Assembly (NCBI GenBank): GCA_017610275.1
Contig: JAFCCI010000005.1
Coordinates: 1 to 42,469, forward strand
DNA from: Candidatus Woesearchaeota archaeon
Lineage (GTDB): Archaea; Nanobdellota; Nanobdellia; Woesearchaeales; CG1-02-33-12
Reading direction: 5' to 3'
Length of the DNA stretch: 42,469 nucleotides
Shown here: piece after piece, positions 9,477 through 30,000 of the stretch
How positions within the stretch are numbered: the stretch's first letter is position 1
Layout of the letters: every line of letters starts with the position of its first letter
Made by a program: the position numbers and the translations under genes
Notes under the pieces: model-generated
The model's database searches: none
Told to the model about the DNA's origin: nothing
What the model saw: the letters and a program-made list of their open reading frames with translations, nothing else

Positions 9477-10439
9477 ATGGAAAACACAATCTGGACTGAA
9501 AAATACAGGCCAAAGGAATTCTCTGATATAAAAGGTCAGAAAGAAATAGTCAAAAGAGTAAAGGCATTTGTTAAGCAAAAAAATATGCCTCATCTATTGT
9601 TTTCCGGGCCAGCGGGAACAGGCAAGACAAGCCTGGCTTTGGTAATATCAAAAAAACTGTTTGGCGACAGCTGGCATGAGAATATTCTTGAATTAAATGC
9701 CTCAGATGAAAGAGGGATTGATGTTGTAAGAAACAAGGTAAAGGATTTTGCAAGGACAAGGGCAATTGGCAATGTGCCGTTTAAGATAATTTACCTTGAT
9801 GAGTCAGATGCCCTGACAAAAGAAGCACAGCAGGCATTGAGAAGAACTATGGAGAATTATACAAGAACATGCCGCTTTATTCTCAGCTGCAACTACAGCA
9901 GCAAAATTATAGAGCCAATACAATCAAGGTGTGCTATATTCAGGTTTAAGTTTTTGAGCAAGAAAGAGATAATAGAACTGATTGAAAAAGTTGCAAAAGC
10001 AGAATCATTAAAAATAGATGATAAGACAAAAGAAGTTTTGTATGAAGTCAGCAATGGGGACTGCAGGAGGATGGAAAATATTTTGCAAAGTTGTGCAGCA
10101 TTATCCAGCAATATAACAGAAGATTTAATCTATTCAATAGCATCTATTGCAAGGCCAAAAGAAGTAGGTGAAGTGTTAAACCTTGCCTTAAAAAATAAAT
10201 TTAAGGATGCAAGGAACAAATTATTGGATGTTATGCTTGAGTATGGGTTGTCTGGCCTTGACATAATAAAACAAATTCAAAAGGAAATACTAAATTTAAC
10301 TATTGAACCAAGGAAAAAGATGTTCTTAATAGATAAATGTGGTGAGATAGAATTCAGGATGGTTGAAGGCTCTGACGAATTTTTACAGCTTGAAGCACTG
10401 TTAAGCCAGGTTACATTAACAGGAATAAAAAAAAATTAA
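9477..10439 (+). CDS. rfcS: Replication factor C small subunit
   Basis: 320 aa. 'WTEKYRP', Walker A 'GPAGTGKTS', 'LDESDALT' (DEAD-like), 'SRC' motif 'IEPIQSRCAIFRF'. Confidence 0.93.
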   Translation: MENTIWTEKYRPKEFSDIKGQKEIVKRVKAFVKQKNMPHLLFSGPAGTGKTSLALVISKKLFGDSWHENILELNASDERGIDVVRNKVKDFARTRAIGNVPFKIIYLDESDALTKEAQQALRRTMENYTRTCRFILSCNYSSKIIEPIQSRCAIFRFKFLSKKEIIELIEKVAKAESLKIDDKTKEVLYEVSNGDCRRMENILQSCAALSSNITEDLIYSIASIARPKEVGEVLNLALKNKFKDARNKLLDVMLEYGLSGLDIIKQIQKEILNLTIEPRKKMFLIDKCGEIEFRMVEGSDEFLQLEALLSQVTLTGIKKN

Positions 10440-11359
10440 ACAGAATGTTTTACCAGAACCTGTGTTGATATGTCTTCTTTATAATCATATTCTAATTTTA
10501 TATTGACTGGTTTTTCAAAATCAGTGTTTGTTTCTGTTTCCTGAGTGCAGGTTATCGTACGTTTTCCGCTATATAAAGTTATATAGCCACTTGTAGCGTC
10601 ACCATCTAAACCAACACAGTTTAAGCCGCTCATTCCTGTATCAACGCTCACAAAAATCCTGTTTTCATTTGTCCTTGTTTCCTCGCAGTTAGAACCCTTT
10701 TTGTATATTCCCCCATTTCCCTTAGGCTCTATTGTAAACTGAAAGTTAAACTTATTCTTTCCTTTAGGAGTTTCTTTAAAGGTTGTAACCTGTACTGGAC
10801 CGCCTGAGTTAAAAACAGCTTTCTCCTCATTAATTTTGCAAATATCTCCTTCTTTATCAATCTGACCTTTTTTTATGCAAAGCATTGAGTTTACATCTGT
10901 TGCATAATTATAACAGACATCGGCCCTTATTGTATAGGGAGTGTTTCCAGTTAAGCTTTCACGGTGATTTAATCCAGAAAATACTACATAAGTTGTTGTT
11001 CCTTCTATTTTGTTTCCTTCTGAATCCTTATAAGTTCCTTCTAAATCCTCATCAGAGTGTTTAACAAAATCAGAATCTGATAATCCAAATTCCCTTGGGT
11101 CAATTCCACTAAGACTTACCTCCACCTTATCCTTGCTTACACTTTGTTCACCATCATTCTTTAGCTTGACAACAACTTCAAAATCAAAGTCCCCCCCATC
11201 ATAGACCTCTGCTGGAGGTGCACCATCATCATAACTTATCAAAAGGCCTGTTGTTCCACCAATAAATGGGCTTTCCTTAGAAGGAGTAATTTTTTCTCCG
11301 CATCCAGATACAAAAATCAATAAACTCAATATTAATATTATATTGACATAATTTTTCAT
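10436..11359 (-). CDS. Secreted lipoprotein, paralog C of a three-member tandem family (unknown function)
   Basis: 307 aa. Signal peptide plus lipobox 'FVSG|C'. Shares 'G..G.L......APP.EVYD', 'CYNY.T.....CI', 'GGPVQVT' and 'NIKLEYDY' blocks with the next two genes. Confidence 0.6.
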   Translation of the reverse strand: MKNYVNIILILSLLIFVSGCGEKITPSKESPFIGGTTGLLISYDDGAPPAEVYDGGDFDFEVVVKLKNDGEQSVSKDKVEVSLSGIDPREFGLSDSDFVKHSDEDLEGTYKDSEGNKIEGTTTYVVFSGLNHRESLTGNTPYTIRADVCYNYATDVNSMLCIKKGQIDKEGDICKINEEKAVFNSGGPVQVTTFKETPKGKNKFNFQFTIEPKGNGGIYKKGSNCEETRTNENRIFVSVDTGMSGLNCVGLDGDATSGYITLYSGKRTITCTQETETNTDFEKPVNIKLEYDYKEDISTQVLVKHSV

Positions 11360-11414: not shown

Positions 11415-12365
11415 TTAGGGTGTGTTTAATATTTCAACACCCTTTTGTATTGATGAAGTGTAACCATACTCTAACTTAACTTGTAGTGGTGTAGTATATG
11501 CTGATTTGCTCATTGCTGGTTTTGGAATAGTGCATATAACACTTCCAGCCCCATTTATTAACCTGATTGGATTATTTGGCCTGCAACTAAGACTATAGCC
11601 AGATACCCTACCACTTACATAAACCTTATCCATGTTTGTATAATCCAATGAATATGGGCAGTCAATATTAAGCCTGTTTTTGTCAATAACCTTACCACTG
11701 CCTACATTTTTGATATATACCTTAAATTGTATTTTGTTTGAAAGCACAGTTTCTTCTATTTTTGTTACAGCAACAGGAGCTCCCTGTCCGCCTGATAATG
11801 AGTAACTTTGGGGGATGGTGCAAACCTTTGTCTTTTGCTTTGTTGAATAAGGCTCTGGATCAATGCATACTGTCTGTGGAGCAAGAGTTTCATAATTATA
11901 GCAGGATGTAACAAGGAAGTTTGCATTATAGCTATCAGTTTTCCTGCTGTCAAAATTTATTATATTGCCCCTAAATGAAACCACATCATAGCCTCCCTCT
12001 GGGTTGTAAATGTTTTTTCCTTCAACCTTTGGAAGTGATATCTGTTTTGGCATGCCCACTACAATAGTATTGTCAAAGCCGCTCAAATAAAGAGTTCCAA
12101 CCCCTTTTGCATTTGGATTGATTACATTAATTGCCCAACCAGTAAGAGAATTTGGTTGTGGATATGCTCCTTTGTTTCTTATTTCTACAACAAGATCAAT
12201 TGGCATGTTGTCATACATCTTAGCTGGAGGCATATCTGTCATGAAATTCATAACAATCCCCTGAGTTCCTTTTCTATAGTCAACACCAGTTTCTCCTGTT
12301 TTTGGAGTGCATCCAAAACTAAAGAATAAAAGAAATATAATAACTATTAATATAATCTTTCTCAT
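11415..12365 (-). CDS. Secreted lipoprotein, paralog B of the tandem family
   Basis: 316 aa. Lipobox 'FSFG|C'. Blocks 'GTQGIVMNFMTDMPPAKMYD', 'SCYNYETLAPQTVCID', 'GQGAPVAVTKIEE', 'YTTPLQVKLEYGYTSSI'. Confidence 0.6.
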   Translation of the reverse strand: MRKIILIVIIFLLFFSFGCTPKTGETGVDYRKGTQGIVMNFMTDMPPAKMYDNMPIDLVVEIRNKGAYPQPNSLTGWAINVINPNAKGVGTLYLSGFDNTIVVGMPKQISLPKVEGKNIYNPEGGYDVVSFRGNIINFDSRKTDSYNANFLVTSCYNYETLAPQTVCIDPEPYSTKQKTKVCTIPQSYSLSGGQGAPVAVTKIEETVLSNKIQFKVYIKNVGSGKVIDKNRLNIDCPYSLDYTNMDKVYVSGRVSGYSLSCRPNNPIRLINGAGSVICTIPKPAMSKSAYTTPLQVKLEYGYTSSIQKGVEILNTP

Positions 12366-12412: not shown

Positions 12413-13345
12413 CTATTTTTTTATTGTAATTTTTTTTGATATAGAGTAGGTATAGCCATAGTTTAGCTCAATTGTCAATGGGGTAGTATAGGTTGCTCTT
12501 TCCTTTGGCACACCTTTCTCAAGAATACATCTTACAACATCATCACCATATTTCAGCTTTAATGGTATTGGCTTGCATTCAAGCTCTTCATTTGAAAGCA
12601 TGACCTTTATATCCACTATATTTAATTCCTTATAATTTAATGGGTCTGAAGAGCATATATCAGATATTTTATCTTTGTCAATAACTTCCCCATTACCAAC
12701 ATTTTTTATATGGATTTTAAATGCTGGTTTTATTAAATTATCATCATCTACTGGAAGCATTTCACTCTCTACCTTTGTTATTGAAACAGGTGCTCCCTGA
12801 GGAGCAAGAGTTATATCCTTGACCCTGCATACTTTTTGCATCTTTTTTAGGTCATAAACATCTGTATCTATGCAGGTTGTAATATCTTTTTTTGTTTGGT
12901 ATTGGTAGCATACATTTGCTAATATTGTGGATTCATGCTTCTCACTCTGCCCGCCTATTTTCTTTGTTTTTGCTTTTATTATTTTTACTAACTGGTCTCC
13001 GGTTGGAAGAGAAATAGATTTTCCCTTTAAGTTAAACCTAATAGATTCATCATTTTGGTTCATTAATTCCATGTAAGCCTCCTCAACTGTAAAAGAAATA
13101 AATCCATTCTTAATATCAGATGCTCCAACATTCTCTAATATAACCCCTATCTGAAATGGATAATCTTTATATATTTCGTTGGGAGGTGCATTGTTTAAAA
13201 ATTCCATTAAGATACCCTGCTTTCCTGTTCTGAAGTCATCCTGCGTTGTTGGATTTACAAAAGGGTTTGAAATACATCCTGATATAAATAAAACAAGAAT
13301 AATCATAATTAATAAAATAATTCCAGCATTTCTGTTTTGTTTCAT
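12413..13345 (-). CDS. Secreted lipoprotein, paralog A of the tandem family
   Basis: 310 aa. Lipobox 'FISG|C'. Blocks 'GKQGILMEFLNNAPPNEIYKD', 'VCYQYQTKKDITTCID', 'PQGAPVSITKVES', 'YTTPLTIELNYGYTYSI'. Confidence 0.6.
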   Translation of the reverse strand: MKQNRNAGIILLIMIILVLFISGCISNPFVNPTTQDDFRTGKQGILMEFLNNAPPNEIYKDYPFQIGVILENVGASDIKNGFISFTVEEAYMELMNQNDESIRFNLKGKSISLPTGDQLVKIIKAKTKKIGGQSEKHESTILANVCYQYQTKKDITTCIDTDVYDLKKMQKVCRVKDITLAPQGAPVSITKVESEMLPVDDDNLIKPAFKIHIKNVGNGEVIDKDKISDICSSDPLNYKELNIVDIKVMLSNEELECKPIPLKLKYGDDVVRCILEKGVPKERATYTTPLTIELNYGYTYSISKKITIKK

Positions 13346-13378: not shown

Positions 13379-15799
13379 TTATGCAAATTTTTCTATGTGT
13401 CCCATAACATTTTCTACATAGCTAGTATCTGCATTTTTGTCGCATCCAAGACCATTGTAACCTCTTATCGCCATTTTCACACAATTCCCATCATATTTAA
13501 GATATTTATTTATATACTCATCATTAAAACAATTCTTTCTGACACTACTTTCAAATATTGTTGTTCCATCATTTTTCTTTTTAATATTTCCTTCACTATC
13601 ACAAAAAGTGTTATACTTGTTTTTAAATATCCTGACCCCGCATTCAATATTTGTATTTATATCTTTTAATTCTTCTTTAGTTTTACTACAAAGGCTGCAC
13701 CAGTTGTTTTTAGTTTGTATTTGCATTACCCCAATGCATCCAGTTTCCTTATTTTCTACTACATTTCCTTCACCATCTATATGTTTTAAACCCTCATTTT
13801 CGGTCTCAGCAATTCCTAATATAAGTTTTTCAGGATATCCATATTCTTTAGCAGCCCCTCTTATTTTAAGTTCAACTTCACTGTCATCATAATCCTTCCA
13901 TTCCTCCTTTTTGAGAAAACCCATCATACATTTATCATCATACCATTGGCATTCAATATTATAATCTCCAAAATTACAAATGTCTTTTTCACAATAGTCT
14001 TCAGCAAAGTATATCTTACAATAGTCTTCACTTGGCAGGTCCTGAATAGTTATATAATGTGGGCATTCCTTGCATAAATCATAGGAAACTTCATCACCAC
14101 TTTTCTCGAAAGCCGAATAACAGTCTAAATTGCAAGGATTTGTATCACACCATTCTTGGTTACAAAAGCCAAGCTTATCATAATAATTTCCATCATAGTC
14201 ACCACATTTTAATATATTTTCACATATTTCTTTTATTTCTGATTGACTTTTTAATTCCTCAATTTTATTTTCTTCAGTCATTGCCTCTCCCGGGCTTATG
14301 TATTCTTTTACTTCTTCAATCTCAACAGGTGTTGACTTTTCAAGCTCATAAATATAGTTAACAGTAACCCTAAAATATCTTGTTGTTATTGGCTCATTAC
14401 CAAGCAAACTCTTTGGGTCAGCAGGATTTAACCTGCATTTAATAGAATAGTAATTACTTATATTTTCTGTTCTTTTGTCAGGGACAAGGCTATACACATT
14501 ATATCCATCATCATTTTTTTCTTTGAATTCAAACTCATGGTCACAGTTTGTTAGCTCTAGGCTGTCATGAACCTGAATCTCTAAGTTTGTTACTTTTTTG
14601 ATAATACCCTCCCAATTATTTTCTATGGTTATTCCAAAGAAAAAAGGGTTATTCTCTTGATCACTGTAAACCCCTATTGGCAGCGGCTCAGCTGTTTTCA
14701 TGCCTATTCCTATAGGTCCATTTGTGTATATTGCTATTGGGTTTATATGGCTTATTCCATAATGCTGGAATACATCAATTTCCTCTCTTTTAAAAGCCCT
14801 TAACCTTTCCTTATCCATGAAATATGTTTTTAGATAAGCCATTGTTTCAAAATTAAACTCTGCATTAAATATTACCTCTTTCTTGCCAGGATTAAGTTTG
14901 TCAAATACACAGTCAAGAGTTTCTTCTTCCTCTGTTGCTATATTAAACTCATTCTGAGGAGTTATATTACCATTTATTTTTTTGTCCCCTTCTTTTGCAT
15001 AACATGAAACATTTATGTTAATTTCTTTATCCCCTAATGTTTTTGCTTTTAGGGTAGCCCAAACAATTATTTTTTCTCCTTCAAAGAATTTTGAATCAGA
15101 TGCTTCCAAACCCTCAAGATAAACACCCACTGGCTCATGCTCATAATCATCAACTCTGCCTGTATAATAATCTCCTGTAGCTGTTTGTATAAGGCTATTA
15201 TAAACATTTTTCCAGGTTTTTCCAATATTTTTTATGACACTATTAAATCCATAGCTTAAGTCCCTCATGGTATTTGAGATTGTTTGCTGCACATTAATTC
15301 CTGTTTCAATATCCCCTACTCTTAAATCGTTTATAAAACCATTAATAAGGGCTGGAAAAACAAGAAATACCACTAATAATACTATGCCCCACCTGCATAT
15401 AGTAATAAACCAATTTTGTCCCATTGCAAAACAAAGGTATAATACCCAAGCTGGAAAAAATATAATTGCTGTCTGGAATGCCTGTGAACCTCCTAAAAAA
15501 GGGATTATCCCTCCTAAATAAGGAGCAAATATTGCAATTGATGAGAGGATAATGGGAACTTTAATGTTGGCAACATTAGCAACCCCTGTATTTTCTTGGT
15601 CATTAAATAGGGTAAGCCATGCAGCAAATGTTAATATTAAATAAGCAAATATTCTAAAACTAGTATTTCTAAAGTCTGAAAAAACATCAAGGAGATGAAT
15701 AACCAAACTAATAATAATAAAAAGGGTTATAGAAGGATTAGCAGTGAGCCCTCTATTCATATTCCTTAAAAACCCCTTCCACATATCTCTAGCTGCCAT
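13379..15799 (-). CDS. Large envelope protein: N-terminal polytopic membrane domain, a copy of the lipoprotein-family module, a Cys-rich region, and a C-terminal lytic-transglycosylase (SLT/GH23)-like domain
   Basis: 806 aa. About 5 TM helices lie in residues ~25-165. The centre ('VGVYLEG...','GPIGIGMKT','FFFGITIENNWEG','RYFRVTVNYIYELEKS') is collinear with the lipoprotein paralogs. About 20 Cys lie in 'CENILKCGDYD...CQWYDDKC'. The C-terminus 'LILGIAETEN...GCIGVMQIQ...NIECGVRIF...AIRGYNGLG' resembles the SLT E-S/T ... GLMQ ... AYNxG motifs. Confidence 0.6.
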   Translation of the reverse strand: MAARDMWKGFLRNMNRGLTANPSITLFIIISLVIHLLDVFSDFRNTSFRIFAYLILTFAAWLTLFNDQENTGVANVANIKVPIILSSIAIFAPYLGGIIPFLGGSQAFQTAIIFFPAWVLYLCFAMGQNWFITICRWGIVLLVVFLVFPALINGFINDLRVGDIETGINVQQTISNTMRDLSYGFNSVIKNIGKTWKNVYNSLIQTATGDYYTGRVDDYEHEPVGVYLEGLEASDSKFFEGEKIIVWATLKAKTLGDKEININVSCYAKEGDKKINGNITPQNEFNIATEEEETLDCVFDKLNPGKKEVIFNAEFNFETMAYLKTYFMDKERLRAFKREEIDVFQHYGISHINPIAIYTNGPIGIGMKTAEPLPIGVYSDQENNPFFFGITIENNWEGIIKKVTNLEIQVHDSLELTNCDHEFEFKEKNDDGYNVYSLVPDKRTENISNYYSIKCRLNPADPKSLLGNEPITTRYFRVTVNYIYELEKSTPVEIEEVKEYISPGEAMTEENKIEELKSQSEIKEICENILKCGDYDGNYYDKLGFCNQEWCDTNPCNLDCYSAFEKSGDEVSYDLCKECPHYITIQDLPSEDYCKIYFAEDYCEKDICNFGDYNIECQWYDDKCMMGFLKKEEWKDYDDSEVELKIRGAAKEYGYPEKLILGIAETENEGLKHIDGEGNVVENKETGCIGVMQIQTKNNWCSLCSKTKEELKDINTNIECGVRIFKNKYNTFCDSEGNIKKKNDGTTIFESSVRKNCFNDEYINKYLKYDGNCVKMAIRGYNGLGCDKNADTSYVENVMGHIEKFA

Positions 15800-15827: not shown

Positions 15828-17024
15828 TTATTTTTCAAGTTCTATTTTTAACTCAACAATATCAAGCATTGACAATGGTTCTATTTTTATGAAGTTGTTG
15901 CCTTCTTTTACATAATTATCTATGTTCTTGTAATATTTTGCTTCCTCTGTGTCAATAGAAATCATCCTGTTGTTTATATTAAGGTTCATTTCCTTGTCTT
16001 TTTTGTCATCCACAAACTCAAGAGTTAGCTTAGTATCATATTCATCGCCCTTAATCTTATCATATGTTGATTCGTTAATTGGAAAATAATATGTTGGGTA
16101 GGTTAGCTCTTTAAGATCAGTTGTTATTTTTATTTGCTCAATGCGATAAGAGCCCTTGTCTGTTTTAAAAACAATATTATTATCACCTTTATGTAAAAAT
16201 GTTGCTGAGAAAAGATACATATTGATTGTTTTGCAGTCAGGCACCCCAGAAAAGACCTCTCGATAGTTAATTAATACATCCAGTTTTCCAGCATCGTCCT
16301 GTTCGCAATCAGGCCAAAACCTGAGTTTTGCTCTCTCTAAATTTAACTTTTCATTCTCACTTACAAAGAATATATTCTTGCTTTCCTGCCTGCTTATATC
16401 CGCAACATCACCAACTATCCTAATGTCATCAAGGCTGTAAACATTTGTTGACCAGAATTTAATTCCTGTTCCAGAAACACTAAATTCCAGTATATTATCC
16501 TCTTCAAAATAATTTTTTTTAAGTTTTATTGGCTTTGGATTTGATGTTGTTATCTCGCTCTCAAATATATTAATATCATTAAGTTTTATGGTCAATATTC
16601 CCGTATGCTTTTTTGCTGTAAATGATAATAAAATATTTTCTGTATTTTTTAAGTCTAATATTTTAAAAGGAATTTCCTTTTTTACTTCATCAAATAATCC
16701 ATGCCTTATAATAAATGGATTAATTGTATCTAATTCTTGTGCATTTATAGTTTTATATAATTTAAATGCAGATATATCGTGCTCATACTCCTTCTCTTTC
16801 AGGTAATCAATCCTTCCAGGATACTCAAGCATTAAAATATTTTCTTCATCTTCAGCACTAACGCCACCTTCATCTTCATCTTCAATAGTTTCATTTTCCC
16901 CTAATAATTCTGCCCTTTCATCTGGCGGCAGAAATATAATATATAATATAATTAATCCAACCATAAGGGCTATAAATCCTGTTGCACTAGCAGCATTAGT
17001 ACCTTGAGCTTTTTTATTATTCAT
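15828..17024 (-). CDS. N-terminally membrane-anchored extracytoplasmic protein (unknown family), first gene of the 17024-10436 module
   Basis: 398 aa. One N-terminal TM ('GFIALMVGLIILYIIFL'), an acidic stretch 'EDEDEGGVSAEDEEN', then a beta-rich region. A 28-nt gap separates it from the next gene. Confidence 0.5.
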   Translation of the reverse strand: MNNKKAQGTNAASATGFIALMVGLIILYIIFLPPDERAELLGENETIEDEDEGGVSAEDEENILMLEYPGRIDYLKEKEYEHDISAFKLYKTINAQELDTINPFIIRHGLFDEVKKEIPFKILDLKNTENILLSFTAKKHTGILTIKLNDINIFESEITTSNPKPIKLKKNYFEEDNILEFSVSGTGIKFWSTNVYSLDDIRIVGDVADISRQESKNIFFVSENEKLNLERAKLRFWPDCEQDDAGKLDVLINYREVFSGVPDCKTINMYLFSATFLHKGDNNIVFKTDKGSYRIEQIKITTDLKELTYPTYYFPINESTYDKIKGDEYDTKLTLEFVDDKKDKEMNLNINNRMISIDTEEAKYYKNIDNYVKEGNNFIKIEPLSMLDIVELKIELEK

Positions 17025-17084: not shown

Positions 17085-18057
17085 ATGAAACAAATACACT
17101 TTGATTTGAAAAAAGGAGAGCTAAAGCTAAAAGTTGAAAATATGGATGACCTTTGGTGTTTAAGTCATGTAATCCATTTTCATTGAGATAGGTGTTGAGA
17201 GTGTTGAATTTCATGAATATTCCTCTGTTTTAAGGGTTTCTGGGATTATAACACAGGGACCAGAAGATATAACAAAGGGTTCTTACCACACATTTAATCT
17301 AGAATCTGGTTCTATAATCACAATAATAAAAAAACAATGGTTAAGCTTTCAAATTGAAAAAATAAAACAGGCATCAGTTGAAACCAAAAAAATACTAATC
17401 TGTGTTCTTGACAGGGAGGATGTATGCTTTGGGCTTTTAAAAAGACAGGGTTTTAGTCTATTATCTGAGATTAAAGGGGATGTTGAGAAAAAAGCAGATG
17501 TAAAAGTAAAAACAGGAAATTTCTATGCAGAGGTTGTAAACAAGCTTTATAATTATGTTAAAAGATATAAAATTGAAAACATAATACTTGCAAGCCCTGC
17601 ATTCTGGAAAGAAGATTTAATGAAAAACATAAAGGATGAGGAAGTTAAGAAAAAAATCACCCTGGCAACATGCTCCTGCTCTGGAAAAGAGGCAATTGAT
17701 GAAGTTCTGAAAAGGCCTGAAGTAAAAAATGTTTTGAGCCAGCAGAGGCTTGCAAAAGAGCTGAAACTAGTTGAATCATTGTTAGAGGAAATCTCAAAAA
17801 ACAACCTTGCTGTCTATGGCCTGAAGGAAACAGAAAAAGCTGTTAATGCAGGGGCTGTTGAAAAGCTTTTAGTTACAGATGGACTCATACAAAAAACAAG
17901 ATTAAGCAAAAATTATGAAAAAATAGACCAGATGATGAAGAACACAGAGAGCATGAAAGGCAGTGTTAATATAATCGGCTCAGATCATGACGGCGGCAAG
18001 AAGTTAGATGGATTAGGTGGTGTTGGGGCCATATTGAGGTATAAGTTGAGTTATTAG
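17085..18057 (+). pseudogene. pelA: Pelota (Dom34 homolog), disrupted by a frameshift and an apparent ~30-aa internal deletion in the N-terminal domain
   Basis: Frame A runs from ATG 17085: 'MKQIHFDLKKGELKLKVENMDDLWCLSHVIHFH' then TGA at 17184-17186. Frame +1 is open from 17173: 'IFIEIGVESVEFHEYSSVLRVSGIITQGPEDITKGSYHTFNLE...PAFWKEDL...' and continues into the track ORF 17620-18057 ('CSGKEAIDEVL','LAVYGLKETEKAVNAGAVEKLLV'). Frame +1 has no start codon before 17620. Confidence 0.75.
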
Positions 18058-19097: not shown

Positions 19098-20285
19098 TTA
19101 ATTTCCTTTAACAACCCTCAGCGTCTCCCTGGCGATTTGGAGTTCTTCGTTGGTAGGAATGACCATGGCCACTACTTTTGAGTCTTTGGCCGTTATGATT
19201 GTTTCATTGTTTTCATTCTTTTTCTTGTCAATTCTTAGGCCAATGTATTCAAACTGTTTCAGTATTCTTTCCCTTAAATAATATGCATTCTCCCCAATGC
19301 CTGCTGTGAAAACAATTGCATCAACACCATTTAAACTAGCAATATAAGAACCAATATATTTTGTAATCCTATAAGCAAGAACATCAAGAGCAAGATGTGC
19401 TCTTTTGTTTCCTTTTTTCTCATTATTCCACAAAACCCTTACATCAGGGCTTATTCCGGATATTCCCAATAACCCTGATTTTTTGTTTAATATATTATCC
19501 ATTTCCTTAACAGAAAGTTTCTCTTTTTTCATAAGAAAGAAAATTATAGCAGGATCAATATCACCACAGCGAGTTCCCATAACAACTCCCTCCAATGGAG
19601 TAAAGCCCATTGAGGTATCAATGCTTTTCCCATTCATAACTGCAGCAATGCTTGAGCCATTACCAAGATGGCAGGTTATTATTTTTAATTTATTATAATC
19701 TTTTTTTAAGATTTCAGCTGCTTTTTTTGAAACATAATAGTGTGATGTTCCATGAAAGCCATAGCGCCTTATACCATACTTTTTATAATATTTATATGGA
19801 ATCCCATAAATAAATGCTTTTTCAGGAATACTACTATGAAAGCAAGTGTCAAAAACAGCAACCTGCTTTACACTTGGCAAGAGTTCTTTGCAAACCCTTA
19901 TTCCAATAAGATTTGCAGGATTATGCAAGGGGGCAAGTTCACTTAATTCTTTAATCTTTTTCATAACTTTATCATTAATCAAAACAGTTTTTTTAAACTC
20001 TTCACCACCATGAACTGCCCTATGGCCTATGGCCTTTATCTCACTAAGCAAACTTATAATCCTATTATCCAAAATTATGCCAAGAACATTCTTTAATGCT
20101 ACCCTATGGTTTTTAATTTTTTTTCTTATTTTCTTACTGTTGCCTTCTATTTCATACTTAATAAAAGAATTATTTAAACCAATGCCATCAGCAATTCCCT
20201 TAATCAAAACATGTTCTTTTTCTTTAATCTCAAAAAGCTGGAACTTCAAAGAACTTGAGCCCGAATTTAATACCAAAATTTTCAT
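19098..20285 (-). CDS. ackA: Acetate kinase
   Basis: 395 aa. 'MKILVLNSGSSSLKFQLF', 'GHRAVHGG', 'FDTCFH', 'YGFHGTSH', 'CHLGNGSS', 'DTSMGFTPLEG..MGTR.GD.DP'. Confidence 0.93.
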   Translation of the reverse strand: MKILVLNSGSSSLKFQLFEIKEKEHVLIKGIADGIGLNNSFIKYEIEGNSKKIRKKIKNHRVALKNVLGIILDNRIISLLSEIKAIGHRAVHGGEEFKKTVLINDKVMKKIKELSELAPLHNPANLIGIRVCKELLPSVKQVAVFDTCFHSSIPEKAFIYGIPYKYYKKYGIRRYGFHGTSHYYVSKKAAEILKKDYNKLKIITCHLGNGSSIAAVMNGKSIDTSMGFTPLEGVVMGTRCGDIDPAIIFFLMKKEKLSVKEMDNILNKKSGLLGISGISPDVRVLWNNEKKGNKRAHLALDVLAYRITKYIGSYIASLNGVDAIVFTAGIGENAYYLRERILKQFEYIGLRIDKKKNENNETIITAKDSKVVAMVIPTNEELQIARETLRVVKGN

Positions 20286-20289
20286 TATA

Positions 20290-21270
20290 TCACTTCTTTA
20301 TATTCTGAGCCTGCACAACAGTTATTGCAGTCAAGTCAACAATATCCTGAACAGAGCAACCCCTTGATAAATCATTCATTGGCTTTGCAAGGCCTTGGAG
20401 TATTGGGCCAATTGCCCTTACATTCCCCAATCTTTCAACAAGCTTGTATGATATATTGCCAGAGTTAAGGCTCGGAAACACAAGCACATTAATTTTTTCC
20501 CGGCAGTTAATACTAGGGCACTTTTTTTCACAAACATCTTCTATGAGTGCAGCATCTGCCTGGATCTCACCAACAACATTTAATCCAGATTTTTTGGCAA
20601 TTTTTACTGCCTTTCTTACTCTATCTACATCTTCTCCTTTTCCAGAACCAACTGTTGAATATGAGAGCATTCCTACCCTTGCTTTTTTATTAAAAAGATT
20701 TTCAAATGTTTCTATTGAAAGCCCTGCTATTTCAGCAAGATCTTCTGAGCTCGGGTCTGGGATAACAGCACAGTCAGCAAAGAGCAGAACTTTTTCATCT
20801 TTTGCCATAAGCATAGCACCAGACACTTTTTTAACATTCTTTTTTGTTTTTATTATCTGAAAAGCTGCCCTTACTGCTTCCGATGTTGAATGAGATGCCC
20901 CTCCTATTAAGCCATTAGCATCATTGCAATAAAGCATCATAGCCCCAAAGTAGAGCTCATTTTTCAGCATTTTTTTTGCATCATCTAAACTAACACCCTT
21001 ATCATTCCTTAATTCAAAAAGCTTTTTTGCATACAAATTAAATTTTTCTGATTTAAGATTATTAATAATCTCAACACCCCTTAGATTTAGCCCAAGATCA
21101 TCAATTTTCTTTAATACCTTTTTCACATCACCTAAAAGAGTAACCCTTGCAATTCCTTTCTTTAAAATGATTTCAGATGCCTTTAAAATCCTCTCATCAA
21201 ATGCCTCTGAAAAAACAATCTTTTTGGGATTTTTCCTTGCTTTTTTTATTATATTATCCAAAACTTCCAT
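20290..21270 (-). CDS. pta: Phosphate acetyltransferase (short, PTA_PTB-domain-only form)
   Basis: 326 aa. 'KKIVFSEAFDERILKA', 'NELYFGAMML', 'DGLIGGASHSTSEAVRAA', 'ADCAV.P.P', 'FPSLNSGNISYKL'. It lies 4 nt upstream of ackA on the same strand. Confidence 0.9.
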   Translation of the reverse strand: MEVLDNIIKKARKNPKKIVFSEAFDERILKASEIILKKGIARVTLLGDVKKVLKKIDDLGLNLRGVEIINNLKSEKFNLYAKKLFELRNDKGVSLDDAKKMLKNELYFGAMMLYCNDANGLIGGASHSTSEAVRAAFQIIKTKKNVKKVSGAMLMAKDEKVLLFADCAVIPDPSSEDLAEIAGLSIETFENLFNKKARVGMLSYSTVGSGKGEDVDRVRKAVKIAKKSGLNVVGEIQADAALIEDVCEKKCPSINCREKINVLVFPSLNSGNISYKLVERLGNVRAIGPILQGLAKPMNDLSRGCSVQDIVDLTAITVVQAQNIKK

Positions 21271-23353: not shown

Positions 23354-24310
23354 CTATGGCAGTGTTCTGTACTTTGTGTTTATCATACCCCATTCAACAA
23401 ACAACAATGCTAAAGCAGTCATCATGAGGCCCATTGAAAGATTTACAGGTATTTTTTTCTGTGAGCTTGCAGATATTTCTTCAAATGCATTGGATAAACT
23501 TTCCTCATTATCAGCCCTGTAATACTTACCATCTGTTTTTTGAGCTATGTCAATGAGGGTTGGCTCATCAAGTTTTGAGAGTAAATCGCCTTTTATGAAT
23601 GTCCCCCCTTCTTCTGTGCCAAGGCCTATAGTGTTAATTGTTACATAATTTTTGTTTGCATATTCAATAGCCGTATCAACAGGCGTTCCAACAGTGCTCT
23701 GCCCGTCTGTCAGCAAAATAATAACCCTTGAGTTTTCCTGGTTTAACAAAATATTTGTAGAGGTTATTATTGCTCCCCCTATATCAGTTCCTCCAACTCT
23801 CTTAATTCTTATGCCGGTAATAACCTCTTCTGTCTCTTTCATGTTATCTGTTAAATCCTGCTCAACAAAACTTGTTCCTGCAAAAGAAACAACACCAATA
23901 TTTGTTTTTGCTTTTAAGCTCTCAACAAACAATGAAGATGCCTTTCTTGCAGCATCAAGCCTATATGGCTTGAAATCATCTGCTAACATAGAGCTTGAGG
24001 CATCTATTGCTATCACAAAATCAAACTCACTGCTTTGGCCACTGTACCAAAGGACAGGTCCGGATATTGAAAATATGAGAAATAATAATACAACAACTCT
24101 TACAATCAACAAAAACAAATTTTTTGATATCCCCCTTGCATTTTTAAGTTCAAGCTTTGTTCCTGTCACTCTTTTGATTGCCTCAAAATTAGCAAATTTT
24201 ACTGCCCTTCTCTTGAGGTAACCTAAAACAAAGAAGTGGGTTATTATTAGCATGGGTATGCTTATTAAAAGCCACAAATAATAAGGATTAGTAAAGTTTA
24301 TTGTTATCAT
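23354..24310 (-). CDS. Membrane-anchored von Willebrand factor A (vWA) protein, BatA-like
   Basis: 318 aa. N-terminal TM helices, MIDAS 'VIAIDASSSM', 'VVSFAG', 'GGTDIG.AI', 'IILLTDGQS', C-terminal TM. Confidence 0.8.
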   Translation of the reverse strand: MITINFTNPYYLWLLISIPMLIITHFFVLGYLKRRAVKFANFEAIKRVTGTKLELKNARGISKNLFLLIVRVVVLLFLIFSISGPVLWYSGQSSEFDFVIAIDASSSMLADDFKPYRLDAARKASSLFVESLKAKTNIGVVSFAGTSFVEQDLTDNMKETEEVITGIRIKRVGGTDIGGAIITSTNILLNQENSRVIILLTDGQSTVGTPVDTAIEYANKNYVTINTIGLGTEEGGTFIKGDLLSKLDEPTLIDIAQKTDGKYYRADNEESLSNAFEEISASSQKKIPVNLSMGLMMTALALLFVEWGMINTKYRTLP

Positions 24311-25194
24311 CTTCTTATTTTATTCCTCATCAAAAAGAAATTTATTACATGATTTAAAAAAGGTTTATCTGTTCTTAATTCTAAAAAATTTGCTCTTGAT
24401 TTTATAAATGTATGTTTTACATATTTTACTTGTTCTTTAACAGCAGCCTCATATTCTTCCTTTATTGTTGCTGTGTCTATTAATACCTCTTTGTCAGAAT
24501 AAGGGTCTGAAATAACTATCTGGCCAACATCTTCAGGCATTTCATAGTCCCTTGGATCCCTGACCATCATCCCAATTATCTCAAATCTTTCAGATGCAGC
24601 ATTTAAGTATTTTTCCCAATCCTCACCAAGACCTATAAAATCAGATACTATCACAACTATTGCACCCCTTTTGAAAGAATTAATCAACTCAGTTATTACT
24701 CTTGCAAAATCAAATTTTCCTTCATAGAGTTTAGGATTAGACAAGGTTTTTAATATCATAAAATACTGCCCATTACCCATAGCAGGATGCAGGAATTTGA
24801 CTATTTTATCATTAAACATAACCAAACCAACTGAATCACCAGCCTGTATAGCTGCAAAGCTCAGTGAGGCAACAAGTTCTGCTGCATACTCATTTTTCAG
24901 CTTGTCAATAGATGCAAAAGACATGCTTGAGCTGACATCAACTAGAAAAATAATATTAACATTTCTTTCCTCAGTAAGCACTTTAATCAGCAAATCCTGT
25001 GACCTTAAGGTTGCTTTCCAGTCAATCAGGTTAGCATCATCACCAGAAATATAACCTCGATAACCCTCAAAATCCAGGCCTTTGCCTTTAAATGAGCTTT
25101 TATAAGAACCAGTTAAGATATCTATAAACCCTCTTTTGGTTGATACCTCTAATTTTTTAATAAGGGGCTTTAAGTTAAGCTTTAATTCTTCCAT
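24307..25194 (-). CDS. DUF58-family protein (vWA-like, MoxR-associated)
   Basis: 295 aa. 'G.DFEGYR.Y..GDD...IDWKAT.R', 'FLVDVSSSM', 'VVIVSDF'. ATGA start/stop overlap with the downstream vWA gene. Confidence 0.8.
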   Translation of the reverse strand: MEELKLNLKPLIKKLEVSTKRGFIDILTGSYKSSFKGKGLDFEGYRGYISGDDANLIDWKATLRSQDLLIKVLTEERNVNIIFLVDVSSSMSFASIDKLKNEYAAELVASLSFAAIQAGDSVGLVMFNDKIVKFLHPAMGNGQYFMILKTLSNPKLYEGKFDFARVITELINSFKRGAIVVIVSDFIGLGEDWEKYLNAASERFEIIGMMVRDPRDYEMPEDVGQIVISDPYSDKEVLIDTATIKEEYEAAVKEQVKYVKHTFIKSRANFLELRTDKPFLNHVINFFLMRNKIRR

Positions 25195-25207
25195 TTTTAA
25201 GCAGGAT

Positions 25208-26194
25208 TTATGGAACAGGAACTCTTGCCAGAATCTCTGAAATCACATCTTCAACCTTAATATTTTCTGATTGTGCTTCATAGTTTAGGATAAGCCTGTG
25301 CCTCAAAACATCATATGTAACCTCTTTAACATCCTGCGGCGTTACAAAGGTCTTGCCATTCATTAATGCCTCTGCTTTTGATGCAATAAACAATCCAATA
25401 GATGCCCTTGGAGAAGCACCATAATCTATATAATCTCCTAGCTTAACCTTATAATTATTAGGATTCCGTGTTGCATCAACTATCTGAACAATATATTTTT
25501 CAATCTTTTTATCTAGATAAACTTTTTTTACATCATCCTGCAATCCTAATATTTTTTCAGGAGACATTATAGGTTTTAAAGTGAAATTCTCAAACTTTTT
25601 TGTTGTTATGTTTTTATTAAGAATAGCCTGCTCTTCATCAAGAAGGGGGTATCCTATTTTAATCTTGAACAGGAACCTGTCAATCTGCGCCTCTGGCAAG
25701 GGATAAATACCTACTTGTTCTAATGGATTTTGAGTTGCAAGAATAAAAAAGGGCATTGGCATACTAAATGTTTCTTTTCCAATTGTTGCCTGTTTTTCCT
25801 GCATACATTCCAGCAAAGCGGACTGCACTTTTGGAGGTGCCCTGTTTATTTCATCAGCAAGAATAAAATTGCTGAATATTGGCCCTTTAAGAACATAAAA
25901 CCCTCTTTCCCGTTCATAAGCAGTTATCCCAATTATATCAGTTGGCAAAAGGTCTGGCGTAAACTGAATTCTGCTGAAGTCGCACCCCATAACAGCAGAT
26001 AAAGCCCTTACAATAAGTGTTTTAGCAATCCCGGGAACCCCTTCTACAAGCACATTGCCATTTGCTAATAATGCCCTTAAGAATCCATTAATTACTCTTT
26101 CCTGGCCAACAACTGCATTTGAAACTTCTTTTTTTATTTCACCAATAACTTTTTGGTTTTGAATTACCTTCTCAGCAAAATCTTCTTTATTCAT
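25208..26194 (-). CDS. MoxR-family AAA+ ATPase
   Basis: 328 aa. Walker A 'EGVPGIAKT', 'RIQFTPDLLPTDI.G', Walker B 'ILADEINRAPPKVQSALLE.MQE', 'ATQNP.EQ.G.YPLPEAQ.DRF', 'GASPRA'. Confidence 0.9.
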   Translation of the reverse strand: MNKEDFAEKVIQNQKVIGEIKKEVSNAVVGQERVINGFLRALLANGNVLVEGVPGIAKTLIVRALSAVMGCDFSRIQFTPDLLPTDIIGITAYERERGFYVLKGPIFSNFILADEINRAPPKVQSALLECMQEKQATIGKETFSMPMPFFILATQNPLEQVGIYPLPEAQIDRFLFKIKIGYPLLDEEQAILNKNITTKKFENFTLKPIMSPEKILGLQDDVKKVYLDKKIEKYIVQIVDATRNPNNYKVKLGDYIDYGASPRASIGLFIASKAEALMNGKTFVTPQDVKEVTYDVLRHRLILNYEAQSENIKVEDVISEILARVPVP

Positions 26195-26300: not shown

Positions 26301-27026
26301 ATGTACTTAAGCACTTTCAAAAGGAAAAAAAAGAAACCTAATAGGCTTGAACTGGTAAAAAACAATACCTTTAAAAGAATTTATTCATTTAGAAAACATT
26401 TTTCTAAAAAAAACAGAGAAGACAATTTCATCCAGTTTTTTCATATTGTGAAGCTTTTTTTTGCTGAATTATTTAAGATTAGGTATGAATTTACATTTGA
26501 GGAATTAAATAAGGAACTGGAAAGAAAAAGGATAGATGAAAATCTGAAAGAACGAATTACTTTTTTTTTAAAAAAAGTGTCTGTTGTTGAATATAGTAAT
26601 GAAACCCTGTCTGAGCAGGAACTTAAGAAACTATTAAGTGATTTTTTAAAATTATTTGAAAAACTGACATTTAATGAAGAAAAAGTTAAGGAAACAAGAC
26701 TTTGTAAAATATTAAGGATTCTTAAAGTTAAGAGAATATCAACACACAAAAAAGAGAGGGTGAAAAAACAAAATGCTTTGTTAGTCCTGATGCAGCATAT
26801 ATCACCCAAACTTAAGATAAATCTTGAAAAAAGCAGGCTAGAGCAGATACATAATATGCTTATTAAGGCATTGGATATGCTAAATAACAATGAGATTCAA
26901 AAGAGCAAGCAGTTGTATGTAAAGATTAAAGAAAATTATAATCATCTAAAAATTGAAAATAAAAAAGAAATTTATGATGATATTCTTTTCTTATACAAAG
27001 AACTTGTTCCTAATAACAAGAATTAA
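26301..27026 (+). CDS. Soluble helical protein homologous to the cytoplasmic tail of the 1009-aa surface protein (unknown function)
   Basis: 241 aa, K/E-rich. 'FFAELFKIRYEFTFEELNKELERKRI...ITFFLKKVSVVEYS' aligns with 'FLSDLLKIEYEFTYEEFCKEIEKHKI...ITFFRKISEISYK' of 31218-34247. The C-terminal 'QLYVKIKENYNHL...KKEIYDDILFLYKEL' aligns with 'LAYIRIKELYEEL...KRKIYKKIVWLYNKI'. Confidence 0.6.
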   Translation: MYLSTFKRKKKKPNRLELVKNNTFKRIYSFRKHFSKKNREDNFIQFFHIVKLFFAELFKIRYEFTFEELNKELERKRIDENLKERITFFLKKVSVVEYSNETLSEQELKKLLSDFLKLFEKLTFNEEKVKETRLCKILRILKVKRISTHKKERVKKQNALLVLMQHISPKLKINLEKSRLEQIHNMLIKALDMLNNNEIQKSKQLYVKIKENYNHLKIENKKEIYDDILFLYKELVPNNKN

Positions 27027-30000
27027 TACATTTTCTTATGTTTTCTCTTTGATCCATTATGGGTAATCAAATAAAGCAGTAATATTATGATAAACAATAT
27101 TCCTATGCCTGCTGCAATAAGCCTTGTTTGTTTTTTCTGAGTTTCCTCATAAGTTGGCTCTTCTATTATTGGCTCTTTTGCAGTTATTAGATATCTGCAT
27201 GTATCAACAACTGACTGAATCAATAATTGTGCTCTTTTATAGTCTGATTTTGATATTAATTTTTGTGCATCTACAAGCTGCTCATTAAGTTCCAGGCATT
27301 CAGGATTTTCCTCAAGCAGATCCCTTGTGAATGCTATTTTGGTTTCAAATTCTTTCTGGCTCCATTGGCCAAGTTCTATTGAGCTCATGAAGAATTTAGC
27401 AGAATCATTAAACTCAGGGTCTTTTATGTCTGCAAACACAACAACCTCATATGAGCCCAATGCAGTATAAGATTCTATAATAAGGTTTGTTTTTACAGAT
27501 GTCTTTTTTTCTATTGTTTCAAAATAATCTTTTGTGAATCTTAGCTTAATAACACTGCTGTTGACAGAAGCTGTTAAACTTACTTCTTTTAAAGTTATGT
27601 CTCCATAATTATTTAGTGTTATTGGGGCAATAACTGTGTTATTTTTATACATTGTCATTGTTAAAGGAGTTATAAGATTAAATGAATATGGCTTTTCTAC
27701 CTCCACTTTTTTTGTCTTGATTACTATTGTTGATGATCCGCCACCTCCACTAACAATAATTGTTGGACCTGGTGTTATACCTTCATATTCTACAAATGTT
27801 AAGATTATATCATTACTTCTTGTTGTGTTGTAACTATCATTCATTATGAAATATATTGTTTCTGAACCATACCAATCACTTTTAGGCGTGAGTGCAACTT
27901 TATGCGTATCATTTCCTATTGAAATATCAATATTTGAATTCCCACGTACATTATAGGTTATTGTGTCATCTGTGTCAAAATCATGAAAGTAATCATCAAG
28001 GTCTATCCAATTGACATATATTGTGTTTTCATTTCCTGTGAAATCAGATATAATATAATTTACACTTACATCATGCAATGCTGGTGTTGTAAGGGTGTTT
28101 GTTGTGGATAAATTTGCCAGGTATTGTATATATTGATAATCCCCTGATTCAATTAATGAATCATTAACATAATCAGAACTCCAGCTTGCATTATTTAATC
28201 CAACTTCTGTAAAAGCAGTTTTTGTCTGCAGTGTTATGTTAGCTCCTGCAGGCATTGTTGTGCTAAAATTAATATAAGTTATGTTCATGTTATCCTCAGC
28301 CAGGAGATTTATTACTGAGGATATGAAATTCCCTTGCGAATAATAATTAGTTGAATTCTGATTATCAAGTATTATGTCTCCGCTTTGGGTGGTTATACTT
28401 GTGTTGCTTTTTATTCCAGGGCTGAAATCAGTTTTAGTTGTTTGTGTTACTATTCCAAAGCTTGGCAGCCTATTTGTGTTATTCACACTAACATTCCAGG
28501 TTATGCTGTCTGTTTCATTGGAGTTATCAGAAACTATTACTGTTATGTTACGCTGCCCAGCTGCTGTAAAATCAGGCTCATAAAGCCACGACTGGTTTGA
28601 TGACTGGTTAACAGAATCCAAATACCATGTATATGTCAGACTATCTCCATGAATCAAATCATCATCAGTTGCTGTTACATTAAACTGCAATGATAAGTTT
28701 TCTGCTGTGTTTGGTATTAAGTTAAGAGGGATATAAGATGTTATGTTAGGTGGGCTATTGAGGTTTAGTATTGTAAGGATTATAACTCCCCATGTTACAC
28801 TATTGCTATCATTTACTGAAATATTTATTGAATAATTTCCAACATCATCATTTGTGGGAGTAAAGTTAATAAATCCTGTTAAAGAACTTATATTAAATAA
28901 GGTACTGTTATCGCTGAATGTTAATGGATCATTTTCCTCATCTGTTGCATTAATATCATAAAAAAATAATATATCCTCTGTTGCTGTCTGATTTTCAAGT
29001 GGAGGGTCAAAATAAGGGGGATCATTTATTTCAGTGATATTTAACCAGAATGTTGCTGATGCTGTTCCATTATCCCCATCACTCACATTAATTTTTATGC
29101 TGTAAAGCCCTATCTGGCTCACATTTGGAGTAAAGTTAATAAACCCTGTTGAGGGGTTAATATCAAACAAAGTTGTATTATCGCTGAAGGTTAATGGATC
29201 TCCATCAGGATCAGATGCATTTATTGTTAAGTTGAATTCTAAATCTTCTGTTGCACTCTGGTTACCTATTGGATCAATTACTGGAGCCCTGTTTTGTGTA
29301 ACAGTAAATACTACTATTTCATAATCTATTTTCGGTATGGTAGCATCATCTGTAACAGAAATATTAATTGTGTAAACTCCTGCCTGGCTTTCATTTGGTG
29401 TAAATTCAATAAGCCCTGTTGATGGATTAATCTCAAACAAAGTTGTATTATCACTCAAGGTTAAGGTATCTCCAGTGTCAAGATCTGTTGCATTAACCTT
29501 CAAGCTAAATGTTTTATTTATCTTGATTATTCTATTTCCTATTGGGTCTAAAATAGGGGGGTTATTAATATCTAATATCTCGAGCACAAATGTTGTTGAG
29601 TCTGTTGCACCTTTTTCATCTGTTGCTGTAACAAGAATAGTATGATTTCCTTTGTCTTCATCAAGCGGTGTAAAGCTGAATTTTGCAGCTGTTTCATTAA
29701 TTTTGACAGAAGTTAACATTTTATCATAATTGCTTGAGAATGTAAGGTTATCACCATCCAGGTCAGAACCTGTAACTATCAACTCAAATAAGGTATTTTC
29801 TTCACCTGTCTTGTTAGTTATTGGGTCAATAACCGGAGCTGTATTATTGAGTATTGTAAGATTTAAAGTAGTAGAGGAATTAGCCATTCCATCGCCTACA
29901 GTGATATTTATTATATAATTACCAATATTATCCCTTGTTGGAGTAAAGTTAATAAACCCTGTTGAGTAAGTAATATTAAACAAGCTTGTGTTATCATAAT

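Follow-up and report, generated by a model that had tools for sequence, protein, structure and literature searches.

A lytic transglycosylase domain on a membrane-anchored scaffold protein encoded in a conserved five-gene cluster of Woesearchaeota

The stretch of DNA analysed in this work, referred to as the window, comprises 42,469 nucleotides of contig JAFCCI010000005.1 from a Candidatus Woesearchaeota archaeon. The gene in question is the open reading frame (ORF) at 13379..15799 on its minus strand, which runs from an ATG to a TAA stop codon (13379-13381) in the ORF list of the window and encodes a scaffold protein of 806 amino acids (aa) with a C-terminal SLT domain. Sequence profiles and a structure model indicate that the C-terminal ~165 residues are a true family-1 lytic transglycosylase domain of glycoside hydrolase family 23 (GH23/SLT), beyond a chance match of motifs. 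This domain is carried by a polytopic membrane protein, some of whose relatives replace it with other murein hydrolases, and the gene belongs to a conserved cluster of five genes. We propose, with confidence slightly better than even, that the protein is the head of a surface complex and opens the wall of bacterial partners or prey upon contact.

The transglycosylase domain and its scaffold protein

An earlier note on this DNA had placed an SLT-like domain at 13379-13880, which corresponds to residues 641-806 and the stop codon, from the order and spacing of its motifs, and the ORF and the peptide strings quoted there are exact matches in the translation. We delimit the domain to residues 640-806 (13382..13882; like the coordinates that follow, on the minus strand unless stated otherwise). 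The search of the Pfam SLT family (PF01464) that the note had proposed bore the assignment out: the family matched the C-terminal 173 aa with an E-value of 2.8e-7 and 30.6 bits, compared with a gathering cutoff of 21.3, and matched the whole protein with 26 bits, still above the cutoff. The match was partial (profile positions 3-87 of 117) because a lineage-specific, Cys-containing insertion of ~45 aa (residues 730-775, 13475..13612) sits between the 'NIECG' helix and the YNG motif; this insertion was delimited in an alignment of 16 SLT domains of the family (alignment A2) and was modelled as helices with high confidence. A profile made from the same alignment matched Escherichia coli MltC (2.2e-9), Slt70 (1.2e-6), EtgA (1.3e-6), and MltE (~1e-5). 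The AlphaFold2 model of the domain, also built on the 16-domain alignment, had a predicted local distance difference test score (pLDDT) of 92.3 and a predicted template modelling score (pTM) of 0.88, and when it was compared with the PDB by Foldseek, the best 50 matches were all GH23 lytic transglycosylases or goose-type lysozymes, with a probability of ~1.0 and template modelling (TM) scores of 0.45-0.55. Among predicted viral structures, the best matches were the LT_GEWL/SLT domains of tail lysins, tape-measure proteins, internal core proteins, and the PRD1 transglycosylase. A phmmer search of the PDB with the single domain sequence returned only designed pentatricopeptide repeat proteins, which were rejected as a compositional or repeat artefact (per-stretch E-values of 35-140).

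The motif order of family 1 is kept in the domain, with Glu667, G690-V-M-Q693 (SLT motif II, 13721..13732), the helix containing N717, and Y781-N-G783 (the 'AYNxG' motif of SLT, preceded here by G780; 13451..13459), and the residues E667, G690, M692, Q693, N717, Y781, N782, G783, Y794, and V795 are invariant in the 16 SLT domains. The codon of the predicted catalytic acid/base, Glu667, is found at 13799..13801. This residue is aligned with the Glu of the 'TES' motif of MltC and, in the model, closes the helix 22-32 right before the beta lobe that bears GVMQ. The end of a helix before the beta lobe is the canonical acid/base site in lysozyme-like enzymes, and the alignment and the secondary structure together would put Glu667 in the groove. 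The earlier note had looked for the catalytic Glu in the string 'AETE' and expected Ser or Thr after it. The string was the right one, but the predicted residue is its second Glu, E667 of 'AETEN', and not E665, the Glu of the Glu-Thr pair (E665-T666); likewise, Ser follows in 11 and Thr in 1 of the 16 domains, but Asn follows in the window protein and in its relative P0013, the remaining 2 domains having Gly. The pair of Glu and Ser is common but not universal in the SLT family, and position 668 was treated as variable, not as disqualifying. The domain holds eight Cys residues.

The domain stands at the end of an elaborate protein. A hydropathy scan and the AlphaFold2 model of residues 1-505 place an N-terminal polytopic membrane anchor of about five helices at residues ~22-158 (15326..15736; model helices 22-40, 46-63, 76-98, 100-125, and 130-158), and the five hydrophobic helices agree with the description as a membrane protein in the earlier note. 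The anchor is followed by a helical stalk (residues 170-218, 15146..15292), modelled as a helix at 170-208 with low confidence, which leads into a conserved 'ATGDYYTG.VD' motif with invariant A207, G209, and V216. The hallmark of the family is the all-beta ectodomain that comes next, consisting of two tandem beta-sandwich modules (residues 225-495, 14315..15127; pLDDT 80-92). Foldseek gave for this ectodomain only generic tandem Ig-like or beta-sandwich matches with TM scores <0.2, such as RbmA, complement macroglobulin (MG) domains, adhesins, and integrin legs, and with no specific structural relative among them, no function could be read from the fold. An acidic and poorly conserved linker (residues 496-524, 14228..14314; identity ~0.2-0.3 in all pairwise comparisons) then connects to a disulfide-rich module with 13 Cys (residues 525-627, 13919..14227), which was delimited by the Cys positions and the identity breakpoint against the relative P0009 and which some relatives have in two copies. 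Directly after this module comes the cassette junction ('...CQWYDDKCMMGFL'; '...CQWYD.KCM.GFL'). The ~48-aa unit with six Cys within 13919-14227, 'CP.Y.TIQ..PS.DYC..YL.E.YCE.D.C.F....I.C.WYDNKC', had no Pfam match and could be a binding module.

Of the 27 Cys residues of the protein, 21 lie beyond residue 520, and basic residues strongly prevail in the N-terminal extensions of distant homologs (33 K+R versus 3 D+E in one example). Because of the odd number of helices and the Cys-rich tail, a topology with the N-terminus inside and the C-terminus outside is predicted, in which the SLT domain would be extracellular, at the distal end of the stalk; the model helices and the K/R-rich N-termini of the homologs are consistent with a cytoplasmic N-terminus. 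Hydropathy-based counts of transmembrane helices were noisy across distant homologs, and the topology is therefore offered as a prediction.

Exchange of hydrolase heads and the conserved gene cluster

The host is a Woesearchaeota-like DPANN archaeon, and the gene is chromosomal and, as the earlier note had held, archaeal. The window, with a G+C content of 31.7%, contains the archaeal information-processing genes for the replication factor C (RFC) small subunit, FEN-1, aIF-2B, RNase HII, TrmB, the tRNA-splicing endonuclease, Hjc, and TFE-alpha. Full-length homologs with 46-72% identity were found in metagenome-assembled genomes (MAGs) of Woesearchaeota and Nanoarchaeota, the closest named relative being from a groundwater 'Candidatus Woesearchaeota archaeon' (71% identity), and all homologs that carry names came from MAGs of Woesearchaeota, Nanoarchaeota, or Nanoarchaeia.

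The homologs obtained with the full protein had the N-terminal ~500 residues in common and differed in their C-termini. When a profile of the scaffold only (alignment A3) was used, 1,508 representative clusters at 50% identity were retrieved, 877 of them with E-values <1e-30. From these searches, the N-terminal ~500 aa, namely the polytopic anchor and the tandem beta-sandwiches, are seen to define a large lineage-specific family. The tails were surveyed by a Pfam scan of 146 family members in which 90 aa or more follow the scaffold. SLT was found in 67 of the 146; Amidase_2, NlpC/P60, and Peptidase_M23 were found in 4 each; Glucosaminidase (GH73) in 3, with E-values down to 2.3e-8; and Amidase_3, Lysozyme_like, and SLT_2 in 1 each, these being counts per Pfam family and not a union. 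Since the query that yielded 40 of the 146 proteins itself bore an SLT domain, a crude motif count from the unbiased subset (37/106) should be read beside the figure for SLT. Some tails combine heads, such as SLT with Amidase_2 in P0045, NlpC/P60 with SLT in P0031, and SLT with a sub-threshold M15 match in P0038, and the GH73-like heads of P0009 and P0020 remained below the Pfam cutoff (22.6-23.9 bits versus 30.2). Among the catalytic domains recognised by Pfam in the 146 tails, none belonged to an enzyme class other than murein hydrolase. The other matches were non-catalytic or sub-threshold: PKD, fn3, DUF4112, DUF6442 (below cutoff), and, in 2 members, Pur_ac_phosph_N, the fn3-like N-terminal domain of purple acid phosphatases.

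These heads have different targets within one polymer. SLT enzymes cleave the bond from N-acetylmuramic acid (MurNAc) to N-acetylglucosamine (GlcNAc), GH73 enzymes the bond from GlcNAc to MurNAc, and Amidase_2 and Amidase_3 the amide between MurNAc and L-alanine (L-Ala), while NlpC/P60, M23, and M15-like enzymes act on the stem or cross-link peptides. Because the bonds cut by the alternative heads co-occur only in bacterial murein, the composition of the family favours true bacterial murein as the probable substrate over a re-purposed fold or pseudomurein. From an exported murein-cleaving fold in an archaeon the earlier note had drawn two possible implications, a bacterial target or a re-purposed fold, and it is the former that gains from the finding of Amidase_2/3, NlpC/P60, M23, and GH73 in place of SLT or next to it on the same scaffold.

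The heads are exchanged as cassettes between close relatives. In sliding-window comparisons with the window protein, P0009 was 60-90% identical up to about residue 640 and ~15% identical thereafter, with a GH73-like domain in place of SLT. In P0013 the scaffold was 20-70% identical and the linker was different, whereas the SLT module was 83-97% identical; in P0003, conversely, a scaffold of 80-90% identity was followed by an SLT module of 23-57% identity. From these breaks in identity it follows that the enzymatic head has had a history separate from that of the scaffold. Furthermore, P0006, P0010, and P0011, with scaffolds of ~76% identity, carry a duplication of the ~48-aa Cys repeat and no enzyme. 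A recent acquisition of the SLT module from bacteria, phages, or plasmids was considered and set aside, as nothing pointed to it: the G+C content of the SLT segment (0.308) is close to that of the window (0.317), tblastn of the module against phage and plasmid collections gave no match, and the SLT profile search found only 8 short matches from DPANN archaea or metagenomes. Viral and bacterial structures matched the model of the SLT domain equally well.

The scaffold gene is the second of five genes on the same strand, separated by gaps of 28, 33, 47, and 55 nt. The first gene, which we call up (15828..17024), ends 28 nt from the scaffold gene and encodes a 398-aa single-pass membrane protein that has no known domain and a conserved 'GLIILYI.FLPP' anchor. 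Downstream of the scaffold gene are three genes for lipoprotein-like paralogs of ~310 aa: A (310 aa, 12413..13345), which follows after 33 nt and has an invariant lipobox-like Cys24; B (316 aa, 11415..12365), which is paralogous to A; and C (307 aa, 10436..11359). The three are mutually related (E-value of 2e-39 for A versus B and 2e-17 for a further pairing) and form three orthogroups in a fixed order, with an invariant lipobox-like Cys at about position 24 and six more invariant Cys. The idea that the paralogs are distant copies of the ectodomain was discarded, as BLASTP found nothing and hhalign gave a probability of 1.6% with an E-value of 0.03. No match to any of the four partner proteins was found in Pfam, NCBIfam, or the PDB, nor an informative one in a search of 5.8 billion proteins, the sole exception being the signal region of the lipoproteins, which weakly matched a Bacillus lipoprotein. 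Outside this lineage the lipoprotein family does not occur, and none of its members is annotated.

The same gene arrangement was present around homologs of only 28% identity. To describe it, loci were collected from one genome per species with a 6-sequence alignment of the scaffold, and the genes of the resulting 65 loci were called by local hidden Markov models on six-frame ORFs. The order Pelota, up, scaffold, three lipoproteins, RFC was conserved over these species-level genomes: up adjoined the scaffold gene upstream in 52 of 53 assessable loci, at least one lipoprotein paralog was present downstream in all 53 and at least three in 39 of 46, Pelota was found upstream on the opposite strand in 44 of 49, and the RFC small subunit was found downstream in 32 of 38. 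The synteny therefore describes a core, vertically inherited locus and not a mobile or patchy element. In the window itself, the Pelota gene (17085-18057, plus strand) is disrupted, as its first 33 codons end in a stop and the remainder is in another frame; ~30 codons of the intact ortholog from the related genome L001 (353 aa) are missing, which could reflect a pseudogene or an assembly error.

Some contigs that bear the cluster have names from other lineages. The same Woesearchaeota-type cluster, with the Pelota/RFC synteny, occurs in TPA_asm MAGs named 'uncultured Methanosarcinales archaeon' (L009-L012, L014, L018-L020, L024-L026, L028, L034, L036, L047-L050, L057, L058, L060-L064), and the cluster is also carried by L021, an 80-kb contig titled 'Candidatus Aminicenantes bacterium'. 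These names are probably due to mis-assignment or mis-binning.

Proposed function and rival explanations

In the mechanism that we propose, Glu667 would protonate the MurNAc-beta-1,4-GlcNAc bond of bacterial peptidoglycan, as in MltC, Slt70, and MltE, and the C6 hydroxyl of MurNAc would then close a 1,6-anhydro ring, by analogy with the chemistry of the family. Because the polytopic anchor ties the enzyme to the archaeon, the only murein within its reach would be that of a bacterium, or of a sacculus fragment, touching the cell surface. Together with the single-pass protein and the three lipoprotein paralogs, the SLT protein would form a surface complex of five proteins in which it is the head that opens the wall, and with such a complex Woesearchaeota and Pacearchaeota could attach to bacterial partners or prey and gain access through their walls. 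The heads would be swappable, so that a glycosidase, an amidase, or an endopeptidase is used depending on the lineage, presumably matched to the wall of the partner.

Several results weigh against this proposal. About half of the family tails in the Pfam scan of 146 have no recognisable hydrolase, and 31 of 177 family proteins are nearly tailless, although some of these are truncated contigs; the enzyme-less tails suggest that the core job of the scaffold and the operon may be something other than wall cutting, to which the hydrolase would be accessory. The fixed position of the cluster beside housekeeping genes would suit a general system of envelope biogenesis equally well, and we infer the complex of five proteins solely from synteny. 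At the level of the domain, Asn668 stands where Ser usually follows the catalytic Glu and activity is a prediction, and the Foldseek E-values were modest (~5e-3, with TM ~0.5) because of the insertions in the domain. In addition, the Pfam scan recognised no peptidoglycan-binding domain (LysM, SH3, or PG_binding) in the protein, nothing in the window points to a bacterial partner, and none is known for the organism.

Digestion of dead bacteria is the alternative that we take most seriously, though we consider it rather unlikely. The tethered hydrolase could digest the peptidoglycan of dead bacteria at the cell surface and thereby supply muropeptides, amino sugars, and amino acids to an auxotroph, with no contact with a host. 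DPANN archaea are auxotrophs, Pacearchaeota have been suggested to obtain amino acids from such peptidoglycan (PMC11537232), the spread of hydrolases over glycan, amide, and peptide bonds would suit complete digestion, and a surface tether would hold the products near the cell. However, each protein carries one or two types of hydrolase and not a full digestive set, the conserved cluster contains no muropeptide transporter or downstream catabolic gene, and the exchange of cassettes among close relatives fits better with adaptation to specific wall chemotypes. Contact-dependent, bacteriocin-like killing of competing bacteria might also account for an exposed hydrolase, since archaeal M23 hydrolases kill bacteria in experiments and homologs of peptidoglycan hydrolases abound in Nanoarchaeota (PMC12352652), and the swapping of C-terminal modules is typical of effectors in an arms race. 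In contrast to weaponised hydrolases, which are patchy, often plasmid-borne, and secreted, the scaffold protein is polytopically anchored and encoded at a core locus in 65 species-level genomes; the cluster has no immunity-like gene and no gene for secretion or injection, and the protein has no LysM, SH3, or PG_binding domain and no phage or plasmid relatives by tblastn. An antibacterial weapon is decidedly improbable on these grounds.

Two further explanations concern the domain itself. The SLT fold might have lost or weakened its catalysis and serve for adhesion, recognising murein and holding the archaeon on the bacterial wall, as could be suspected from the Asn in place of the usual Ser after the Glu in the window protein and P0013, from the suggestion of 'attachment' beside degradation by Castelle et al. 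(PMC8204110), and from a scaffold that has no other recognisable wall-binding domain. However, Glu667, G-x-M-Q, N717, and Y-N-G are invariant over 16 divergent members, as selection on catalysis would give, and Gly or Thr after the Glu is also found in otherwise intact homologs; binding without cutting is therefore given little credence. We regard as very improbable, and as the last of the readings to be entertained, that the fold was re-purposed for a substrate other than murein, such as a glycan of the archaeon's own envelope, the pseudomurein of methanogens, or chitin-like polymers. Partnerships of Woesearchaeota with methanogens have been proposed, the cluster resembles a housekeeping locus of the envelope in its behaviour, and GH23 enzymes can bind chito-oligosaccharides (PDB 4hjy), but MurNAc-L-Ala amidases, NlpC/P60, M23, and GH73 on the same scaffold together fit bacterial murein only. 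Pseudomurein producers have almost no peptidoglycan hydrolases according to the PLoS Biol survey (PMC12352652), and the literature searched did not report that these lineages synthesise murein or pseudomurein, the lack of reported murein synthesis applying also to the idea of an autolysin for the cell's own murein. Pseudomurein has beta-1,3 and no beta-1,4 links, contains L-talosaminuronic acid in place of MurNAc, and has no lactyl-L-Ala bond.

The proposal of a wall-opening head can be extended further, albeit only as a tentative possibility that we would not expect to hold on present evidence. The five-gene cluster may be an undescribed surface machine that defines the Woesearchaeales and Pacearchaeales, with hydrolase cassettes matched to walls, and may serve both to breach the host wall and to determine the host range in an episymbiosis of archaeon on bacterium. 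If this is true, the five-gene machine would be a cellular counterpart of phage tail lysins.

Relation to known systems and neighbouring genes

GH23 domains on large extracellular proteins of Woese- and Pacearchaeota have already been reported (PMC8204110, PMC9723730, PMC10936187, PMC11537232). Castelle et al. (2021) described large extracellular SLT proteins of up to 3,000 aa as fam00969, with earlier sightings by Rinke (2013) and Castelle (2015) (PMC8204110), and Vigneron et al. (2022), who found in five Woesearchaeota MAGs a GH23 'large lytic murein transglycosylase', argued for predation on bacteria (PMC9723730). It was thus proposed that these proteins bind and degrade bacterial walls (PMC8204110, PMC9723730), and the same point about GH23 was made again in PMC10936187 and PMC11537232. 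Both the observation of an archaeal SLT domain and its preferred implication, a bacterial target, are therefore in the literature, so that what the earlier note had observed and how it interpreted it are real and supported, but less new than it had implied. The window protein agrees with the description of fam00969 in being of Woesearchaeota type, large, and SLT-containing with a predicted extracellular C-terminus, and it shares with the fam00969-type DPANN proteins the lineage, the domain, the extracellular reading, and the link to bacterial walls; most likely it is one of the DPANN GH23 proteins already reported, this comparison with fam00969 being one of descriptions only. The prior DPANN reports in the literature searched note the GH23 domain only, and not the scaffold ectodomain, the exchange with amidase, endopeptidase, and GH73 heads, or the five-gene cluster. 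The scaffold family, its cassettes of murein hydrolases only with their mosaic exchange, and the invariant five-gene cluster were not found described there and are what is new here.

Whether the abundant Woese- and Pacearchaeota live on bacteria, and by what attachment, is a standing question, and we know of no co-culture of any member with a defined bacterial host. With the scaffold family, its cassettes of murein hydrolases only, and the invariant operon, the old hint from SLT becomes a concrete and testable candidate apparatus, and the type of cassette could serve to predict the wall type of the partner from metagenomes. On the other hand, should the cluster prove to be a general system of the envelope in which the enzyme is optional, the finding would remain an ordinary one.

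The bacterial family-1 lytic transglycosylases (E. coli MltC, Slt70, and MltE/EmtA; Pseudomonas aeruginosa MltF and Slt) have the same fold and motif order as the window domain and are its best matches by sequence profile and structure, but with only 12-16% identity. The window domain differs from them in the Asn for Ser, the Cys-containing insertion, and the eight Cys, and whereas the bacterial enzymes are attached by a lipoprotein anchor or joined to a superhelical domain, this one is borne by an archaeal polytopic scaffold and made by a producer not reported to have murein of its own. A functional analogy for the proposed head is offered by the enzymes of large machines. EtgA of the type III secretion system, which is among the best sequence matches, is likewise an SLT enzyme tied to a large apparatus and makes a local, contact-limited hole in murein; VirB1 of the type IV secretion system and FlgJ of flagella are also specialised transglycosylases of trans-envelope machines. 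Virion lysins, such as tape-measure, internal-core, and tail proteins and P7 of PRD1, carry SLT on a structural apparatus and are among the best viral structure matches. However, the transglycosylases of secretion systems cut the producer's own wall and phage lysins arrive by virion, whereas the archaeal protein would cut a foreign wall, and although the archaeal genes form a conserved five-gene cluster, none of the partners is homologous to a known component of secretion or tail machines.

Another point of comparison is provided by a 2025 study, in which archaeal peptidoglycan hydrolases were shown experimentally to kill bacteria and only enzymes with a recognised wall-binding domain were counted (PMC12352652). 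Because of this requirement, the scaffold family would fall outside that survey. The haloarchaeal M23 protein 'Woldo' from the same study resembles the window family in being archaeal, in having murein hydrolase domains of bacterial type, and in its domain shuffling, but proteins of the 'Woldo' type are soluble and secreted, have wall-binding domains, and are patchy and often plasmid-borne, whereas the window protein is membrane-anchored, has no known binding domain, and is encoded at a core chromosomal locus.

Several other genes of the window may be mentioned. Two adjoining genes (27023-31210 and 31218-34247, minus strand) encode giant surface proteins of 1,395 and 1,009 aa with Big_9, He_PIG, cadherin-like, and PKD Ig-type repeats, which are candidate adhesins of the same organism. 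A trio for a MoxR AAA+ ATPase, a DUF58 protein, and a VWA/BatA protein (23354-26194, minus strand) constitutes a bacterial-type 'Bat-like' cluster in an archaeal genome, and a pair for phosphotransacetylase and acetate kinase (pta-ackA; 19098-21270, minus strand), also of bacterial type, is found near the cluster in the related genome L001 as well. Finally, a 556-aa protein encoded at 37971-39641 on the plus strand gave a partial match to the GH106 alpha-L-rhamnosidases (E-value of 4e-10), and it is possibly another enzyme for foreign cell-surface glycans.

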